Shown: positions 4,863 to 62,427 of the stretch, in pieces
Layout of the letters: the number at the start of each line of letters is the position of its first letter
Numbering within the stretch: position 1 is the first letter of the stretch
Notes under the pieces: generated by a model
The model's input: the letters and a program-made list of their open reading frames with translations, nothing else
Databases searched by the model: none
What the model was told of the DNA's origin: nothing
NCBI GenBank assembly: GCA_964016885.1
Contig: OZ024758.1
Location: forward strand, 25,730,001-25,794,000
Reading direction: 5' to 3'
Origin: Eledone cirrhosa
Taxonomy: Eukaryota
Length of the DNA stretch: 64,000 nt
Position numbers and translations under genes: made by a program

Positions 4863-7622
4863 CAGTGAATTAAGACTAAAAGATTATGATGAAATTGTTG
4901 TGGCAGATATGATCCATAGCTAAATACATCAATATTTAGTGTCAAATAAAGCAAGCAAGCATGGGAAATATGAAGCATGGTTAAATGATGATGATGAAGA
5001 TGATGGAAGGATGATATGAACTTTCTTGAAAACAGGCATTAAAATTAATAACAATTAAAGGGTGAGAAGAAACTTCAGGAAGAAGAGGAAACTTCAGAAA
5101 GAAAGAGAGAAAAAATAGAAAATATTCAATGCTTCAAGTAATTCTTAAAATGGATGATATATTTTTTTCTCATGATTTTAAAATTCAATGTAAAATTTTC
5201 TTTTTCTAATAGTAGAGCAAAGAAAAAAAAAACAAATTTATTTCAAATAATATTAAAAGAAAAAACATCAAGCTACTTCTCAAATATCAATAAAATAGTC
5301 TGAGTTCATCATCACCATCGTCATCATCAACGTCATCATCATCATCACCACCACCACCACCACCACCATCATCACCACCACCACCACCATGATTTAATGT
5401 CTGCTTTCCCTGCCAGAAAAGGTTGGACAGGTCTTCACAGACCAAGTCAGTACTGAAGTGGAGCTACTAACCTCCAAGACAGGCCAGGGAGTCTGTATTT
5501 CACTTATATTCAGTCCAATCTTCTACTCTTCTTCTTCTTGCTCAACTAGGCCAGGGTCATCCAAAGCCAACGATTCCCAAAGGATCATTGTGTGGAGAGC
5601 CAACTTTAGACTTTTAGACGTTCTACTTAGTGCATTTCATCATGGCACCAGCACAAGACAGGTAGTCATGTCTTTGACACAACTGAAGATCTTGATTTAT
5701 ATGAAAATCTAAACTATAATAAAGAAAGGTCTGCGGAATTGCGTACGGTTTTTTTTTTTTTATCCCGTTTGTAAAATAAGTTGGATTACTTTGAATAAAT
5801 AATTGTTTCTACTTTTGACACAAGGCCAGCAAATACCCAGTGTATTACTGGTACTTTATTTTATCAACCCCGTAAGGATGAAAGGCAAAGTTAACCTCGG
5901 CGGGATTTGAACTCAGAATGGCAAGGGCCGTAACTCTATGCGTCAAAGCATGGCGTCCGACCCTCTACCGATACTGCCAATCCACCGCAATGAATGAATA
6001 TTACATAATTTATCTACTAAATTTCGTGGCTGTTGATTAAATATATTTTGTTTATTTAAAGATTCAGTTCTTTAAAATTTCTGAAATGTCAACACTTCCG
6101 GTTGGCCATCGCTTAAATAAACATACTAATTTTCTCCTAATGCAGTTTATATATAATATCGTCTTTTTTTAATGTATCATGGATTATGTTACTGATTAAA
6201 TAAGACAGTGTAACGCAGTCTTCATTCAATTTCTATGTATTATATATTGTCAATTACGATTTTATTCATATCTACATGTATATATATACCTGCGTATAAT
6301 ATCAATATACACACTACACATGCTAGCAGAAAATCACCCGAAGGCTGGTTTTTCTGCTAGTAATCATAATGTAATCATTTTTTTTCTTTTCTATTTTCTA
6401 GCCCCTATCTCCCGAGGGAGTCATAGTGGCACTGTATTGACATAGAGCATTCTAGGGTATTTTTAAACCTGGCAGAGCCTATCTCCTTCCCAGCTCTGAA
6501 TACAGTAGATTTCTTTCAGAGAAGACTAGTGAGAGTAAGGGAATGAAAGTGAGAAAGAGATATAGAGAAAGAATCAACCTCAGTACAAGACTGGTACTTT
6601 ATTATCAACCTCAAAAGGATGAAAGGCAAAACTGACCTCGGCAGGTTTTGAACAGAGAACACAGAGAGCAGAAAAAATACTGCAAAGCATTCTATCAAAC
6701 ATTCTAATGACTCCACCAATTTGCCATACTTCTAAGGATCATCTAACCCAAGTGAAAATACTAACTAAATGTAAAACAGTAATAACCACTGAAACTGTCA
6801 GGACTAATATCAGTCATTGTTTACATTAATTTTCAGAAATACATAAATATATTACAGAAGGGAGATTTAACTGCTGTTGATGATGAGTTTTAGTAAAAAG
6901 AACTTTGAAGAACAACAGTAAATTTAGCCCTTAACTCTTTAGCATTTACATAACTCTATATTTATATTTACTATTATATATTCATGGTAAAGGCTTTATC
7001 TCACATAATATAGAATCTATGAGATTTTGATATTATTTATTTTGAAAACAATACCTTAACGTCAGTATGAGTGGCCAGTTACGGTTGGTGTGAACAGAAA
7101 GAGAGAATTCTGGCCAGTTTAAATGCTAAAGGGTTAAGCTGCTGGTCACAGAAAATTCTGTGTAGCAGTTTCTTTCTGATAAGAACTATTGGTGTGATAT
7201 TATGTCGGACTATATTGACTCAACTACAAAATTATATAATGTTTATTCCAATGAAACAGTTTATATTTGTGAATATCTTTACATGTCAGAATGGTAAAAC
7301 TTATCTGAAAAGTAATAAAACATCTAAAGAACATGTAGATTTTAAAATAAAAATATTTTTCTGTTTTAAGGGAAAACCCCACCCTAATTTTAGTAAGTTC
7401 AGCGAGTTTTATGAACCTCAATAGTAAAGATAAGGAGCTTTTTTAGTTATAAATCAGATGAAGCTATGAATATTGAAGAGGCAGAAGTAAGACTAAATAA
7501 TATTATAAATAATATTATAGAATGCAGACCCCTTGGCACAAGGCTAGCAATTACCCAGTGCATTACTGGTATTTTATTTTATCGACCCAGTAAGGATGAA
7601 AGGCAAAGTTAACCTCGGCGGG

Positions 7623-11171: not shown

Positions 11172-12153
11172 ATGGTTTCTGAGTTAGGCACAAGGCCAAC
11201 AATTTGAGGGGAGGAGAAAGTTGATTAAATTGACCCCAGTGAATTACTGGTGCTTTATTTTGTCGACCTCCCCCTGTAAGGATGAAAGACAAAGCTAACC
11301 TCAGCAGGATTTTAACTCAGAACGTAAATGGTCGTAACTCCATGCTGTAAAGTAAGTTGTCCAACGTTCTACCAATACTGCCTTAACCCTAAATCTAATA
11401 ATTGTTTCTACTTTTAGGCACAAGGCCAGCAATTTCCCAGTACATTACTGGTACTTTATTTTATCAACCCCGTAAGGATGAAAGGCAAAGTCACCCTCGG
11501 CGGGATTTGAACTCAGATCGTAAAGGGACGTAACTCTGCTGGAAAGCATGGCGTCCGACGCTCTACCGATACTGCCAAATGGTTTCTAGTATAGGCACAA
11601 AGCCAGCGATTACCCAGTGCATTACTGGTACTTTATTTTACAGACCCTGGAAGGATGAAAGGCAAAGTTAACCTTGGCGGGATTTGAATTCAGATCATAA
11701 AGGGAGGTAACTCTATGCTTCAAAGCATGGCGCCCGACCCTCTACCGATACTGCCATCTAATAATGGTTTCTAGTATAGGCACAAGGCCAGTAATTGGGG
11801 GGGGGGGTCGATTAAATCAATCCCAGTACGTTACTGGTACTTTATTTTATTGACCCCATATGGATGAAAGGCAAGGTTAACCTCGGCGGGATTTGAACTC
11901 AAACCGTAAAGGGCCGTAACTCTATGCTGCAAAGCATGGCGTCCGACTCTCTACCAATATTGCTAATAATTGTTTCTACTTTTTGGCACAAGGGGCCAGC
12001 AATTATCCCAGTGTATTACTGGTACTTTATTTTATCGACCCCCATAAGGATGAAAGGCAAAGTTAACCTCGGCGGGATTTGAACTCAGATCATAAAGGGC
12101 CGTAACTCTTTGCTGCAAAGCATTGTGTCAGACCCTCACTGCCAATCCACTGC
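11172..12153 (-). mobile_element. Cluster of five head-to-tail family-1 SINEs
   Basis: Five diverged copies starting near 11172, 11401, 11580, 11763 and 11968. Confidence 0.85.
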
Positions 12154-15133: not shown

Positions 15134-16178
15134 AGTTGCTGAAGCATGGAACAAACTACCTCCTTCAGTTATTAGCTGTCGAGACACTGCATCCTTTAAA
15201 ACCTCCATGGTACAAACTACCTGCATCAGTTGTTAGCTGTCGAGACACTGCATCCTTTAAAACCTCCATGGAACAAACTACCTCCATCAGTTATTAGCTG
15301 TCGAGACACTGCATCCTTTAAAACCTCCATGGAACAAACTACCTCCATCAGTTATTAGCTGCCGAGACACTGCATCCTTTAAAACCTCCATCAGTTATTA
15401 GCTGTCGAGACACTGCATCCTTTAAAACCTCCATGGTACAAACTACCTCCATCAGTTATTAGCTGCCGAGACACTGCATCCTTTAAAACCTCCATCAGTT
15501 ATTAGCTGTCGAGACACTGCATCCTTTAAAACCTCCATGGTACAAACTACCTACATCAGTTATTAGCTGCCGAGACACTGCATCCTTTAAAACCCTCCAT
15601 GGTACAAACTACCTGCATCAGTTGTTAGCTGTCGAGACACTGCATCCTTTAAAACCTCCATGGTACAAACTACCTCCATCAGTTATTAGCTGTCGAGACA
15701 CTGCATCCTTTAAAACCTCCATGGTACAAACTACCTCCATCAGTTATTAGCTGTCGAGACACTGCATCCTTTAAAACCTCCATGGTACAAACTACCTCCA
15801 TCAGTTATTAGCTGTCGAGACACTGCATCCTTTAAAACCTCCATGGTACAAACTACCTCCATCAGTTGTTAGCTGCCGAGACACTGCATCCTTTAAAACC
15901 CTCCATGGAACAAACTACCTGCATCAGTTGTTAGCTGTCGAGACACTGCATCCTTTAAAACCTCCATGGTACAAACTACCTCCATCAGTTATTAGCTGTC
16001 GAGACACTGCATCCTTTAAAACCTCCATGCTTCCCTTCATACACATACACACATGTATATCATGACTCATACACTGTTCAGTTTCCTGACATTTCTACAT
16101 TATTCTATGTACTATACATGCACCTTTAATGAGTTATAGTGCACCTGAGCACTGTACACAATAATTTCATTATTATTT
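15134..16178 (+). mobile_element. CR1-clade LINE 3' end with an internal 61-bp array (~15 copies, 15145-16030)
   Basis: Matches the 61145-62427 element (RVAEAWNKLP...SCRDTASFKTSM region and 3' end GTGCACCTGAGCACTGTACACAATAATTTCATTATT). Confidence 0.85.
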
Positions 16179-16843
16179 AATGGCGGTGGATTGGCAGTAT
16201 CGGGGTCGATAAAATAAAGTACCAGTCACGCACTGGTGTCGATTTAATCGACTTTCCCCTATCCCATAATTGCTGGCCTTGTGCCAAAAGTAGAAACAAT
16301 TATTATTATTATTTTATTGGCAGTATGGGTAGAGGGTCGGACGCCATGCTTTCTAGCATAGTTACGTCCCTTTACAGTCTGAGTTCAAATCCCGCCGAGG
16401 TTAACTTTGCCTTTCATCCTTACGGGGTCGATAAAATAAAGTACCAGTAATGTACTGGGTAATTGCTGGCCTTGTGCCAAAAGTAGAAACAATTATTATT
16501 ATTATTTTATATTTTGAGATGAAAAATGGAAAAAAAAAACTATTTCAGTTTTAGTAGTAACTATCAAAAGACCCCGTTATTGCCAGCCACACCTTTTGCT
16601 GCTGTCAATAAAGATCCCCTCACTGTTCAACATGGCCATCTTTAAATAACTTTAGAACACTGCTGTTTTAGGGGAGAGAAAGATTTAAACTAAATGTTGA
16701 CATGCTCCAGCAGCTAAATAATCCATGTATCAAATTTGAACAAAATTGGATGGAAACTGTGGAAATGCATCGCCTGCATACAGACAGACATTTTCGTTTT
16801 TATATATATATATAGTTATGTAATAAACAACATAAGGCAATTA

Positions 16844-16904
16844 TTCCATTTACCAGTGGTTTCTTAAAAGCAAAAACATTTTGCTTTCAATCATCAGAAC
16901 GGAA
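16844..16904 (-). ncRNA. Inverted copy of the same hammerhead ribozyme (sense to the host gene)
   Basis: Reverse complement of 16954-17014 in the left arm of the fold-back; TCATCAG at 16891-97. Confidence 0.8.
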
Positions 16905-16953
16905 AAATCCTGGCGTATTTATTGAATAAATAAGAATAAATACGCCGGGATTT

Positions 16954-17014
16954 TTCCGTTCTGATGATTGAAAGCAAAATGTTTTTGCTTTTAAGAAACC
17001 ACTGGTAAATGGAA
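16954..17014 (+). ncRNA. Type I hammerhead ribozyme, apparently intact
   Basis: Stem I TTCCGTT/AATGGAA (7 bp); CTGATGA 16961-67; stem II TTGAAAGCAAAA/TTTTGCTTTTAA (12 bp, 3-nt loop); GAAA 16995-98; stem III ACCACTGGT; cleavage triplet GUA (after 17007). Activity not tested. Confidence 0.8.
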
Positions 17015-17342
17015 TAATTGCCTTATGTTGTTTATTACATAACTATTAAGCTCTGTTACCTACATAGAGCACTCTTTTTTCCTGGACTTTTCCGACGGAA
17101 TTACTTCATATATATATATATAGATTAGTTTAATAACAGAAGACCCAGTTATCCTTTTTCCCTCACCAACATCAACACAGAGACATAACTAAGGTGTGGA
17201 AAGCATCACATGCCATGGGCACCACTTAAAGGTGTGGGGGCAGCGCCACTTGGTCTAGGAGCCTTTTCTATTAAAGTCAGATAAGCTATCATCGGAGAGT
17301 GACCAAAGAAACTTCTTCAGATGTATGATCTGTCTTTCATTA

Positions 17343-17980: not shown

Positions 17981-19978
17981 TTATCAGGAGTGAGAAGGAC
18001 TATGGTGGCTGGATTAACCCTTTAGCATTTACATTAATTTATATTTACTATTATATTTTCACAGTAAAGGCTCTACTTCACATAATATTGAATCTATGAG
18101 ATTTTGATATTATTCATTTTGAGAACAATACCTTAATATCAGTATGAGCAGCAGGTTACAGCCAATTTGAACAGAAAGAGGTGAGAGAATTCTGGCCAGA
18201 TATGGCTGGTTTAAATGCTAAAGGGATAACAAACGCAATTGGTAATTTTGAGCTGATTTGATGAAAGAGAGGTGTCAGATGTTTGAGCAGGGGTGCAATT
18301 TCACTGCTTGCCATAGGTGTTATTTTCTCTAGTTCTGGCACTACATCAACAACTTCACCATCAATAGAAATAATTGTTTCTACTTTTGGCACAAGGCCAG
18401 CAATTATCCCAGTGTATTACTGGTACTTTATTTTATCGACCCCCGTAACGATGAAAGGCAAAGTTAACCTCGGCGGAATTTGAACTCAGAATGGCAAGGG
18501 CCGTAATTCTATGCGTCAAAGCATGGCGTCCGACCCTCTACCAATACTGCCAATCCACTGCCCTTAGAAATAATTGTTTCTACTTTAGGCACAAGGCCAG
18601 CAATTACCCAGTTCATTACTGGTACTTTATTTTATCGACCCCGTAAGGATGAAAGGCAAAGTCAACCTCGGCGGGATTTGAACTCAGATCGTAAAGGGAC
18701 GTAACTATGCTGGAAAGCATGGCGTCCGACCCTCTACCGATACTGCCAATCGACAGAAATAATGGTCTTACTATAGCCACTACAATGAAAACAAATTAGC
18801 GTATATTTATAACTTAAGTCTCCATAAACACTTTATTGAATCAAGTTTTATTACATTTTCTTCTTATCTATCAATGATCTTCAGTTACTAATTAGCCTAA
18901 TCTAGTTTTTATAATCCATTCTCTTCACATATTCAACTGTTCCGTTCTCTCTTAGCTCTATACAAGCCTTTGTTGTCCATAAACACACTTTAGAAATCCA
19001 AACTTTCATTACCTAGGAAAGAAACATTTAGTTAAAACCAACACAAATCTCTCTGGACTTTCTTTATCTAAACAACACAATCTACAATGTTTACTTTCTA
19101 CTTTAATTCAGCAAAGTAAGCTAAATATAATCTATATATTGACTGCAATATAATACTGAAAACAATTGGTTACTGAGTATGACTAAGATAACACCATTTA
19201 ATTGGCAGGGAATGATTATAGGGGAGAGTTGTAACATGGATATTAAATGATTTCCTGGCAAAATTACTAAATATTATTATCAAATAAAAGTAGAAACAAT
19301 TATTATCAAATAAATTACATCTGAATAATTAAGATTAGATTATTAATGGTTATAAAGGGTGATAGATAACACTATCAGATAAAATTCCATGTAATTATAT
19401 CCTTCACAGTCTGAGCTCTAATCAACATCTGCATGAGTCAACTTTGATGTTCATCCATTTGAAAGATGAATAAATACAAGGATCAAATGAATTATTTAAA
19501 CTGACCCCAGAAAACCTGTGGTCGTCTGTATGTCAAATATGTCAGATAAGTCTAAAGTCATTATTATTGGTATTAACCCTTTCATTGCCATATTTCTACT
19601 GAAATACTTTGTATTTCAATTGATTAATGAAGAATTTGGAAGGATTTAGAAAAATTATTAATTATTTTATTAATAAGATGGCATTAAATATAACTTAGCA
19701 GAAGGATCTTATATCAAAATATATTGAGAGGGGACGGCTTATAGGAACCCTCTAACCCTTTAGAATTTACATTACTCTATATTTATTATTGTATTTTCAT
19801 GGTAAACACTTTATCTCACATAATTATCCCTCATACTATTGAATCTACGAGATTTTGATATTATTTATTTTGAGAACAGTAGCTTAACATAAGTATGAGC
19901 AGCCAGTTATGGCTGGATTGAACAGAAAGAGGTGAGATCATTTTGACCAGATATGGCCAGTTTAAATGCTAATGGGTG

Positions 19979-35802: not shown

Positions 35803-35982
35803 ATTCAGAACGCATGCCAACCGCAAGGCACTTCTGTAGACGACAAAACTGACAGCGATTACGATGCATTTTTGTGACTGGGCAATCTTTGTTACCTCGA
35901 CAGGCATAGCCAAGCTGTTTCCGAATACTTCTTTTAAAGAAACCTTTGCATCCTTCACAACTAATTGCACCATAGTGACGGC
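35803..35982 (-). CDS. Coding exon of the NR2C/NR2D nuclear receptor: main C4 zinc-finger DNA-binding domain
   Basis: tttttcAG|GC CGT CAC...TCT GAA T|GTAAGT, 180 nt, phase 1/1. Translates [61 protein letters not shown]-box CEGCKG; GRHYGAIS...RKQLGY closely matches HR78/TR2/TR4 as I recall them. Confidence 0.95.
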
Positions 35983-41312: not shown

Positions 41313-41753
41313 TAATAATGAAATATTGTGTACAGTGCTCAGGTGCACTACAACTCATCAAAAAGTGTATGTACAGTACATAGGGCAATGCACAAACATC
41401 AAGAAAATAAACAGTGCATGAGTCATGATACACACATGTGTGCATGTGTATGGAAGGGGTACATCAGGTGTAGTTTGGGCGTATTTCGGGAAGCATGAGT
41501 GTCTTAAAGGATGCAGTGTCTCGGCAGCTAACAACTGACGCAGGCAGTTTGTTCCATGCTTCAGCAACTCTGAGCGTGAAAAAATGTCTACGAAAGTCAT
41601 GGGAGCTGTGCTGTTTTCTGATTTTGTAGGCATGTCCACGTGTGTTAGACACATGGAGATCAAAAAGGTGCTCAGGGTTGTTGTTGGCGAGATAGTTAAT
41701 AATTTTGTGGGTGTTTACCAAGTCCATTGCCAGACGTCGGAGCTTCATAAGAT
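41313..41753 (-). mobile_element. CR1 LINE 3' fragment (another 3' end at ~40960-41073)
   Basis: LRRLAMDLVNTHKII...TRGHAYKIRK...FFTLRVAEAWNKLP; same 3' UTR as 61145. Confidence 0.85.
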
Positions 41754-42775
41754 ACTGGAAATGCACCACTTCTAACATAGAAATAGAATTCCCTAACAGA
41801 GCATGACAACATCCAGTAAATGGTAAAAAGTTGTTTACCTTTTTTTATGTGAAATCAGCTGAAACTGCCCCTTGTTCAGCAATACAAAGCTGCTTATTTT
41901 AAAGTGTCTATATATATTTTAAAAAATAAACCTTCCATCATAATTTTATATTAGAAACTTTTTAAAGTTATAAATACCAATTTAATAATGAGAAAATTTG
42001 TTATATTACTAAGTCTTTCCAAATATCAATTTAACCTTTTAGCATTTAAACCGGTCATATCCAGCCAGAATTCTCTCCTCACTTTCTGTTCAAACCGGTT
42101 ATAACCAGCCACTCATATTGATAAGGTATTGTTCTCAAAATAAATAATATCAAAATCTCATACATTCAATATTATGTGAGATAAAGCCTGTGAGATAAAG
42201 CCTTTACCATGAAAATACAATGGTAAATATAAAGTAATGTAAATGGTAAAGGGTTAAAGTGTTTATATTTATTTTAAAAAAACCTTCCATCATAATTTTA
42301 TATTAGAAACTTTTTAAAGCTATAAATACCAATTTAATAATGAGAGAATTTGTTATATTACTAAGTCTTTCCAAATTGTTGATTATTTTCAATTATACAC
42401 AGTGATTATTTGAACATTATACACAGTGTCTTTCATTAGAAATATGGTAACAAAAGGGTTAGAAATATCTTTTAGTCATGAAGAAATAAAACCAAGTTTT
42501 CTTCTATGCAAGTTTGATAATGTTGACATGTGGCTTTTTCAGAAACCACCGAATAAAATTCAACTTGAAACGAAAAATTTTCTAGTGAAGGATTTATGTA
42601 ATTCTTGAATTTGAAAATACTTCATAAATGAATGGAAGCACGATGTAGCATGCAAGGATTTAGATAATTAATCTCTAAGTTTAGATGATGTTAAGTATCT
42701 ATTGTGTTTTCAACACTCCAGTAAATACCAAGTTTCCCCTATTACAAAACAGGTCTTATATTATTTTTACCTTTG

Positions 42776-50228: not shown

Positions 50229-51372
50229 ATATATATATATATATAATAATAAAGTATGTGTTCCTACGTGTAAAAAATACATATAGGGACACAAGTATAG
50301 TCTGACCATATGCCAATATGGTTCAATGGCAAGTTAATAAATTAACAAGCCAAAGCATATAAAATCAAGGTATTGTAAATACAGAAAATCCTAAAAAATA
50401 ATAAAAAATGTATTTATTATTTTTTAGGATTGTTTCTGTATTTACACTCCCTTGATTTTATATATATATATCATCATCATCATCATCATTATCATCTTCG
50501 TTTAACGTCCATTTTCCACGCTAGCATGGGTTAGACAGTTGTCCCACTTGAGGCAAGGTTGGTCGGGTGACCATGTCTCGCTCATATAGGACTATCTGGC
50601 AGGTTTTCTACGGCTGGATGCCCTTCCTAACACCAACCACGTTTACAGTGTGGAACTGGGAACTTTTTACCGTGTTACCTACACGACCACATTACAGCGT
50701 GGACTGTGTGTTTTTTTCTCGTGACACCTACACGATCTCAATCTCGATCTCATATATATATATATCATCATCATCATCATTTCATTTTACATCCGCTTTT
50801 TCCCTGCTTGCAAGGGTGGGACGGGAACTGATTCTGGCTTGATTTCTACAGCTGGATGCCCTTTCTAACACCAACCTCATTTACAGTGAGTGCTGGGTGT
50901 TTTTTTGCCGTGGCACCTCCACGACCCCTTTACAGTGAGTGCTGGGTGCTTTTTTTTTGCCATGGCACCTCCACAACCACTTTGCAGTGGAATGATATGG
51001 ACCTCAGTCTCTAACATCTCATTTCTACAGCTGAGTAAACTGGAGCAATGTGAAATAAAGTGTCTTGCTCAAGGAAACAACACATCACCCGGTCTGAGAA
51101 TTGAACTCACAACCTTTCGATTGCAAGGCCAATGCTCTAACCACTAAGCTATGTGCCTCCTCTATGCCATGTAAATGGTAAAGGTTTAAATATTTATTTG
51201 ATAGTAGTAGTGAGTACTGATAACAATAATAGGAGGTGGAAGATATAATGTCTATTTTCTCAGCTGTTGAAGTTGACACCTTTGTTTAATGAGGTCACTC
51301 CTGGCTGTGAATATGTTTTTCATGAGTTTTGTTTATGTTAAGTTGAACACCTATAGATTCACTGTTAATACT

Positions 51373-61144: not shown

Positions 61145-62427
61145 TAATGAAATTATTGTGTAGTGCTCAGGTGCACTACAACTCGTCAAAGGTGCATGCA
61201 TAGTACATAGAATAATATACAAATGTCAGGGAAGTGAATAGTGTATGAGTCATGATATACATGTGTGCGTGTGTATGGAGGGGGAATATTAGGTGTAGTG
61301 TTGGCGAATCTCAGGAAGCATGGAGGTTTTAAAGGATGCAGTGTCTCGACAGCTAACAACTGATGCAGGTAGTTTGTTCCATGGAGGTTTTAAAGGATGC
61401 AGTGTCTCGACAACTAACAACTCATGCAGGTAGTTTGTTCCATGGAGGTTTTAAAGGATGCAGTGTCTCGACAACTAACAACTGATGCAGGGAGTTTGTT
61501 CCATGCTTCAGCAACTCTGAGCGTTAAAAATTGTTTCCGAAAGTCATGGGAACTGTGCTGTTTTCTGACTTTGTAGGCATGCCCACGTGTGTTAGACACA
61601 TGGAAATCAAAAAGGTACTCAGGGTTGTTGTTGGCAAGATGGTTAGTAATTTTGTGGGTGTTTACCAAGTCAGTTGCCAGGCATCGGAGCTTCAATGTAT
61701 CCATGCCCAGGGAAGCAAGGCGTTCAGAGTATGGTAGATGCCTGATGGAGGGTATTCGCTTGGTTGCACGTCTCTGAACAGTTTCCAGGCGGTCAATGTT
61801 CTTAGCAAGATAGGGGTTCCAGACTGGTGATGCAAATTCTAAGTGTGGCTGCACCATAGCTATATACAGCTTTAAATAGATAGCTGGAGAGCGGCTGACA
61901 AAGGTCTTGCTGAGTGATGCCAAGACACCCTCGGCCTTCTTAACAATTTTAGAGACGTGCTTCGTCCAACGCAAATCACTGCTGACATTAATGCCCAGGT
62001 CACGTTCACAAGAAGACTTCTTGATATTAATGTTGTGGAGGGAGTATGTGGACGCTGGGTTTTTACTCCCAAAATGCATGGTGGTACACTTGTCCACAGC
62101 TAGCTTGAGTTGCCAGTCTGTGCTCCATTGTTGCATTGTGTCCAGGTCAGATTGCAGGCAAGATCTATAGTGTTCAGGATCTGTCCTTTTTATCTCAAGG
62201 TACAGCTTGATGTCATCTGCATATTTCAGTACTGTGGCATTCTTTAAGTTGGCATCTATGTCATTAATATATGCCACAAACAAAAGGGGACCAAGAACAG
62301 ATCCCTGTGGTACACCAGATTACATCTCATATGGTGAGAAATGCTGTCCTAGAACCGTGACTACCTCTCTTCGACTGAGAATGAAGGACTTCAACCAGTT
62401 AAAAAGATCATCGTTCACACCCATTGC
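61145..62427 (-). mobile_element. 5'-truncated CR1-clade LINE, reverse-transcriptase C-terminal half (ORF 61414-62283)
   Basis: SGVPQGSVLGPLLFVAYIND...LKYADD...LQSDLD...ERDLGI...LETVQRRATKRIP...YSERL...TRGH...WNKLP; 3' UTR ending (ATT)n; three 61-bp units at 61318-61505. Confidence 0.92.

Follow-up and report, generated by a model that had tools for sequence, protein, structure and literature searches.

Head-to-head remnant of a probable Hydra-clade Penelope-like element, with paired hammerhead motifs, in a (TA)n tract between nuclear receptor exons of Eledone cirrhosa

Results

Structure of the insertion

The window analysed here is a stretch of 64,000 nucleotides of Eledone cirrhosa (assembly GCA_964016885.1, contig OZ024758.1, positions 25,730,001 to 25,794,000 of the forward strand). 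Positions refer to the window unless the contig is named. An earlier note on this DNA had drawn attention to paired hammerhead ribozymes at 16812-17122, and we identified the following features at this locus and in the gene around it.

16801 to 16814, no strand: left (TA)n target tract, its last 3 nt common to the short end of the element
16812 to 16925, minus strand: left arm, a 5'-truncated pLTR copy with the "short" 3' terminus (..TAACTA/TA)
16844 to 16904, minus strand: hammerhead motif of type I in the sense orientation of the NR2C pre-mRNA, with cleavage predicted between 16851 and 16850
16926 to 16934, no strand: junction filler, read from the sequence as an imperfect repeat (8/9) of the right-arm start
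16935 to 17046, plus strand: right arm, a 5'-truncated pLTR copy
16954 to 17014, plus strand: hammerhead motif of type I in antisense orientation to the host gene, with cleavage predicted after 17007 (GUA)
17047 to 17110, plus strand: tail of the Penelope-like element (PLE), 64 nt, ending at the "long" 3' terminus
17109 to 17122, no strand: right (TA)n target tract
35803 to 35982, minus strand: second zinc-finger exon of NR2C (TR2/TR4-like), with a C4 zinc finger and splice sites
Contig 25627650 to 25638537, minus strand: four LBD exon matches, on the same strand and in order

The two arms (16812-16923 and 16935-17046) are inverted relative to each other, are 112 nt each and are separated by a spacer of 11 nt. 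They are 99% complementary, with a single A/G mismatch at arm position 13. Inverted arms with a short spacer and TA tracts on both sides had been described in the earlier note and are indeed present, but the arms are longer than the ~108 bp given. The sequence at 16924-16925 still matches the element, by comparison with another copy (locus L002). The left arm has no tail and stops at the short terminus, 39 nt beyond the cut site. Because the right arm alone extends for a further 64 nt before the TA tract, the insertion is lopsided; the palindrome proposed in the earlier note stands, but its symmetric layout overlooked this tail. The tail contains a 7-bp hairpin (17050-17070) and in full elements continues into the 5' UTR of an ORF.

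The exon at 35803-35982 matches Pfam zf-C4 (E 7.5e-26) and has NR2C2 as its best PDB match (E 6e-28). The LBD exon matches lie 91-102 kb before the first base of the window, and the last of them also has NR2C2 as its best match (E 1.2e-25). The element (contig 25746812-25747122) is located between the DBD and LBD exons and is therefore intronic by inference. All of these exons are on the minus strand, which makes the minus copy of the hammerhead sense to the pre-mRNA. This exon order supports placement in an NR2C intron, and agrees with the earlier proposals that the element is inside a nuclear receptor intron with its minus copy sense to the host transcript.

Several other repeats are present in the window. 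An inverted pair of SINE-like repeats (16320-16510 and 18363-18500, ~1.9 kb apart) flanks the element, and the same repeat forms tandem arrays at 11397, 38135 and 56460. We take the SINE-like repeats of the window to be octopus SINE. LINE RT fragments, and a 61-bp satellite matching their 3' end, are found at 61414-62319 (minus), 41464-41844 (minus) and 15145-16029, and a borderline tRNA-like match at 51094-51151 (minus, 29.4 bits) is probably a SINE head. Contigs and RAD-seq reads mostly recruited other copies of the family and none spanned the locus; an empty-site joint across the whole element was not among the contig and read records shown. The left flank was covered and the unique flank at 17130-17240 was not; this flank may differ between individuals, and the gap proves nothing.

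The hammerhead motif at the locus

On the plus strand, the motif is made up of a 7-bp stem I (16954-16960/17008-17014), CUGAUGA (16961-16967), stem II (16968-16994), GAAA (16995-16998) and a stem III of ACC-ACU-GGU followed by the GUA site. The core elements CUGANGA, GAAA and NUH and all three stems are thus in place. The isolated 62-mer is predicted to adopt the hammerhead fold at -13.9 kcal/mol (z -2.64), with 4 of 200 shuffles folding equally well. The earlier note had read a complete type I hammerhead in each arm, and this holds for core and stems but not for the canonical closing pair of stem II, which is U-A here in place of G10.1-C11.1. The Rfam search it had suggested gave no hammerhead match at gathering score in the whole window, and around the locus none of the 45 matches with E values up to 10 was to a hammerhead model. 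Matches of miRNA type, below gathering score, were rejected as hairpin artefacts. The motif can be called intact as regards its sequence, and its cleavage activity is putative.

A large family linked to an intact Hydra-motif ORF

A search of the same genome with the arm and tail gave 794 candidates, the best 40 of which scored 95-100% identical over 176 nt. Exact matches to the hammerhead pattern numbered 3,683, against 0 for the backwards-pattern control, and the segment 3' of the cut site had 10,007 genome matches. The copy at the locus has one difference from a dispersed copy and, judged by its sequence, is young. Insertion into TA tracts was seen at the locus and in nearly all fetched copies, and some long ends run into (CA)n.

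Copies extend upstream into a microsatellite-rich 3' UTR and downstream through the tail into a 5' UTR, with an ATG ~120 nt on. A protein search of the genome listed 102 matches, from which we fetched 20 loci selected for long frames; all 20 had stop-free frames of 713-715 codons, with ORFs of 710 aa. The pLTR was directly upstream of the ORF on the same strand, at 88-100% identity, in 15 of these loci. In one of them (L109), window positions 17006-17109 were matched over 104/104 nt, and the match then continued into the ORF. The hammerhead is located in the pLTR of full elements, with unit sizes of 4.2 kb (L113) and, as spacings, 2.7 kb (L090).

All five ORFs checked carried RWK, DKT (without DKG) and YRDD, the linker CxCx5C (CSCRKPDEC), CxxC (CSLC) and CxH (CPH), as well as a GIY-YIG-like pair at the C-terminus, VYEAKI..YVG. 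A Pfam search of the ORF gave no RT or GIY-YIG match, so the domain call rests on these motifs and on likeness by eye to the Hydra-1_Obim protein. The ORF was matched by 1,339 database proteins at E<=1e-30; among the 120 homologues listed, almost all were unnamed and one carried PF01541. RWK, DKT in place of DKG, CxCx5C and the endonuclease CxxC/CxH are features of the Hydra clade (PMC8557442), and by these motif tests we judge that the linked ORF belongs to a Hydra-clade PLE. The ORFs of two further loci, L031 (3650-5705) and L039, were considered as parent and rejected, as they represent another PLE family nested in TA tracts.

The locus is the 5'-truncated, inverted pLTR end of a Hydra-clade PLE, and is neither a retrozyme nor a host element. 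The earlier reading, which saw hammerhead DNA of the PLE type persisting here as a truncated copy in inverted form, was right in this respect. The family may be unnamed, since a search of the open literature on hammerheads in Penelope-like elements of octopus gave PMC8557442 only.

In the commonest intact 4.2-kb elements (L113, L109, and L107-L122 alike), the 3' UTR contains a pair of hammerheads. The first, ~0.4 kb after the stop codon, is degenerate, with a CUGAAGA core and a GUG site, and the terminal one lies ~1.4 kb beyond it (L113:4990-5070 and 6390-6450). This suggests that the elements grew by read-through, which took in flanking DNA together with a downstream pLTR. At L109:2200-2330, an intact ORF copy with its 5' end at the hammerhead cut site adjoins an inverted 3' UTR copy. 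The second PLE family (L031:3560-7335) has a long open frame and, near 7150, a CUGAGGA hammerhead-like motif distinct to it. It sits in a TA tract of the first family's 3' UTR, the whole inside an 8-kb inverted structure.

Stem covariation across the family

We collected 113 distinct hammerhead variants from the fetched loci, a set that is biased to this subfamily, has its core fixed by the search pattern, and consists of related sequences rather than independent events. Stem II positions 2-8 were paired in 91% of cases, compared with 38-48% in shifted registers. Two-sided changes were present at pair 2 (T-A 99, C-G 9), pair 6 (A-T 77, G-C 15), pair 7 (G-C 81, A-T 9) and pair 10 (A-T 83, G-C 21) of this stem. 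Pair 5 of stem I was T-A in 66 variants, T-G in 38 and C-G in 3, and stem III retained three pairs around a variable 3-nt loop. Only pairs 2-10 of stem II are well kept in the family. G10.1-C11.1 was found in 0/113 variants (TA 68, CA 24, AA 11, AT 4, GT 3, CT 3), and it is likewise missing in several published Hydra motifs (PMC8557442).

A lack of stem covariation among genomic copies would, according to the earlier note, have spoken against its reading; covariation was in fact present in stems I and II. These patterns indicate that the hammerhead of the family is probably a genuine ribozyme. Since the stems covary between subfamilies, it is likely to have been kept for the life cycle of the element.

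An obligate dimer through a palindromic stem III was also considered, and was rejected as a family-wide requirement. Two copies are predicted to cofold through a 4+4 bp dimer helix, but this helix is not required throughout the family, because the fourth pair is T-T in 15 of the 113 variants and the loop varies.

By eye, ~19 of the 100 copies listed were truncated within 45 nt upstream of the cut, 5 of them (at 3 loci) within 2 nt of it, and the ORF copy of L109 also begins at the cut site. The excess of 5' ends at this position is at most weak. As most copies read through the cut site, the evidence for cutting in vivo is likewise weak.

Two fixed ends in head-to-head pairs

Genome-wide, 1,444 head-to-head pairs were found within 60-260 nt, and 0 with the backwards-pattern control. 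In 14 of the first 15 pairs fetched, one end was short and the other long, 64 nt apart, with two of these 14 sharing flanks. Across the genome, there were 826 short/long, 30 short/short and 22 long/long pairs; short plus long accounts for ~94% of the palindromes counted, where the two end patterns differ slightly in stringency and a few of the symmetric matches belong to other repeats. Plain direct copies, too, were found with the short or the long end as their 3' end. Loci vary in arm length and in where the junction lies. Two loci 1.2 Mb apart (L132 and L133) have the same palindrome and the same flanks, which are themselves inverted repeats; they are probably a single insertion carried inside another repeat.

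We consider it highly probable that the locus is a dead stump of a Hydra-clade PLE, with two end copies lying head to head in a TA repeat, likely from one insertion event, and with the ribozyme predicted to be masked by its mirror copy in the host RNA. The identity of the family, its copy numbers, the two fixed outer ends and the link to an intact Hydra-motif ORF are the observed parts of this reading. Both strands of the TA tract would have been nicked by the endonuclease of the element, and each 3'-OH would have primed RT at one or the other of two start sites that lie 64 nt apart within the element, the hammerhead of the template RNA being uncut or ligated again. Each cDNA would then have stopped early, and the two would have been joined through their 3' ends, leaving a 9-nt stutter. 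Any role of the hammerhead would be in tandem transcripts of full elements.

In a biochemical precedent, the Poseidon RT used two internal start sites bounding the tail, extended both target strands and accepted uncut RNA (PMC11167929). The strictness of the short/long pairing is not explained by that study, because in vitro Poseidon had no strand difference in start site. The near-strict pairing (826 vs 30 vs 22) may be a genome-scale footprint of which start site a PLE RT uses on each target strand; use of two sites on both target strands is a step of the PLE cycle still unproven in vivo.

A second route to the same structure is possible, though we regard it as clearly less probable: a single cDNA begun at the long end could snap back, copy itself to the short end and join the other target strand. 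Arms identical in 10 of 21 loci would fit such a fold-back, as would the filler at this locus, which repeats the right-arm start, and the junctions that fall at hammerhead stems, including the palindromic stem III. However, plain copies that are not inverted also have the short end as their 3' end, which points to an independent priming site, and the arms often stop at different 5' points. Over ~85 nt, arms within a locus differed from each other on average as much as from the nearest arm elsewhere (2.4 vs 2.4 differences, 21 loci). Fold-back would be a variant of the reading given above that leaves the status of the locus unchanged, and sequence alone cannot separate it from two-site priming. 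The idea of a hairpin behind each of the two ends was rejected: behind the short end a hairpin does fold (z -2.3 and -3.3), but its counterpart behind the long end did not in 4/4 copies (z -0.2 to +0.6).

It is very improbable that the locus is instead a retrozyme-like element, non-autonomous and moving as an independent unit. The sequence is short, non-coding, hammerhead-bearing and high in copy number, and retrozymes have been proposed as derivatives of PLE pLTRs (bioRxiv 10.64898/2026.07.22.740005). However, a head-to-tail array was looked for at the locus and not found, in full elements the sequence runs on without a break into the 3' UTR and the ORF, and junctions and arm lengths differ from locus to locus, so that each palindrome represents a separate truncation.

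Predicted masking of the ribozyme in the host transcript

The head-to-head geometry means that transcription of either strand reaches the antisense arm before the sense arm. RNA polymerase would make the antisense arm first and the sense arm would zip onto it, forming a 112-bp hairpin in a large intron. Forcing the hammerhead fold is predicted to cost 87.4 kcal/mol relative to this hairpin, in both directions. The hairpin is predicted to be already formed at every transcript prefix length tested, and stems I-III have a predicted probability of 0 in 900 nt of context. When the antisense arm was omitted, stem II was predicted at 0.95 and the host-sense stem I at 0.003-0.05. The earlier note had allowed either co-transcriptional cleavage of the intron by the minus copy or masking by its antisense arm; the predictions argue for the latter and against the former, with the ribozyme at this locus masked by its mirror copy and the intron left uncleaved. 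Given this predicted masking, the element likely does nothing to the host gene.

We regard as extremely unlikely the proposal of co-transcriptional cleavage of the NR2C intron by the host-sense hammerhead as a means of tuning expression, as has been suggested for the CPEB3 ribozyme. In its favour, the minus copy has the sense orientation of the host gene and an intact core, and the stems of its family covary. However, in addition to the predicted dominance of the hairpin, stem I would be only 0.3-5% populated even without the antisense arm, and G10.1-C11.1 is missing. The metazoan PLE hammerheads tested in PMC4209133 gave no monomer cleavage and low dimer cleavage, and the Poseidon hammerhead cuts only with the protein of its element (PMC11167929). 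The young copy, one difference from a dispersed copy, also has no sign of selection at the site. For domestication as an intronic ribozyme, the required fold is excluded in prediction, and no sign of domestication was seen.

Release of the masked copy is equally hard to credit: the 112-bp hairpin would have to be edited by ADAR or unwound, so that the host-sense hammerhead became free to cut the NR2C intron. If this were true, some of the 1,400-plus palindromes would be self-locking ribozymes, acting as editing-gated switches in host pre-mRNAs. Under the masked-stump reading that we prefer, the antisense-first geometry would explain the tolerance of intronic copies, and more than a thousand long hairpins with perfect pairing, likely to be substrates of ADAR, would be present in the genome.

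Comparison with known systems

The family resembles the Hydra clade (Craig et al. 2021, PMC8557442) in its shared motifs, its (TA)n targets and the position of its hammerhead near the 3' end. The locus also takes the form of the published PLE scheme, in which a 5'-truncated copy is inverted and only one end bears a tail (PMC8557442, Fig. 2 legend), and hammerheads on both strands have been described for Penelope-13_HM (PMC8557442). Hydra-1_Obim has the same ACCA-N-TGGT stem III, and its protein in the supplement of PMC8557442 is similar by eye to that of our ORF; the present family is separate because its hammerhead sequence differs. The tail is 64 nt here, compared with the 30-40 bp quoted for the Hydra clade, and the common intact unit measures ~4.2 kb, compared with <3 kb, a length that in this clade is a tendency and not diagnostic (PMC8557442). 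The 3' UTR of this unit is rich in microsatellites, and a second hammerhead in the unit is degenerate.

The minimal hammerheads of PLEs (Cervera and de la Pena 2014, PMC4209133) are likewise of type I with a long helix II and a short helix III, and also occur as thousands of solo copies and as opposite-strand pairs 100-700 bp apart. In contrast to these, G10.1-C11.1 is absent from all 113 variants of our family, and helix III has 3 bp and is not always palindromic. Poseidon_Ac (Frangieh et al. 2024, PMC11167929) is similar in having two fixed 3' ends around the tail, an AT-rich target and read-through of the hammerhead. However, it belongs to another clade, and in the family described here the tail is in the 5' UTR rather than in the ORF and the ends are divided one per arm in ~94% of the counted palindromes.

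Metazoan non-LTR retrozymes (PMC7229834; bioRxiv 10.64898/2026.07.22.740005) are comparable in their type I hammerhead, non-coding character and relation to PLEs, but the sequence at this locus lacks a head-to-tail array and is part of an ORF-bearing element. The CPEB3 ribozyme (PMC10919898) is also a self-cleaving ribozyme sense within a host intron; in contrast to it, the copy described here is a young repeat among thousands, and masking is predicted for it.

Published work already covers the layout, the tail and the occurrence of hammerhead pairs on opposite strands (PMC8557442, PMC11167929, PMC4209133), and the locus itself is ordinary retrotransposon debris of a known insertion shape. What it adds to these systems is of modest value and lies at the level of the family, in the pairing of one short with one long end and in the antisense-first geometry.
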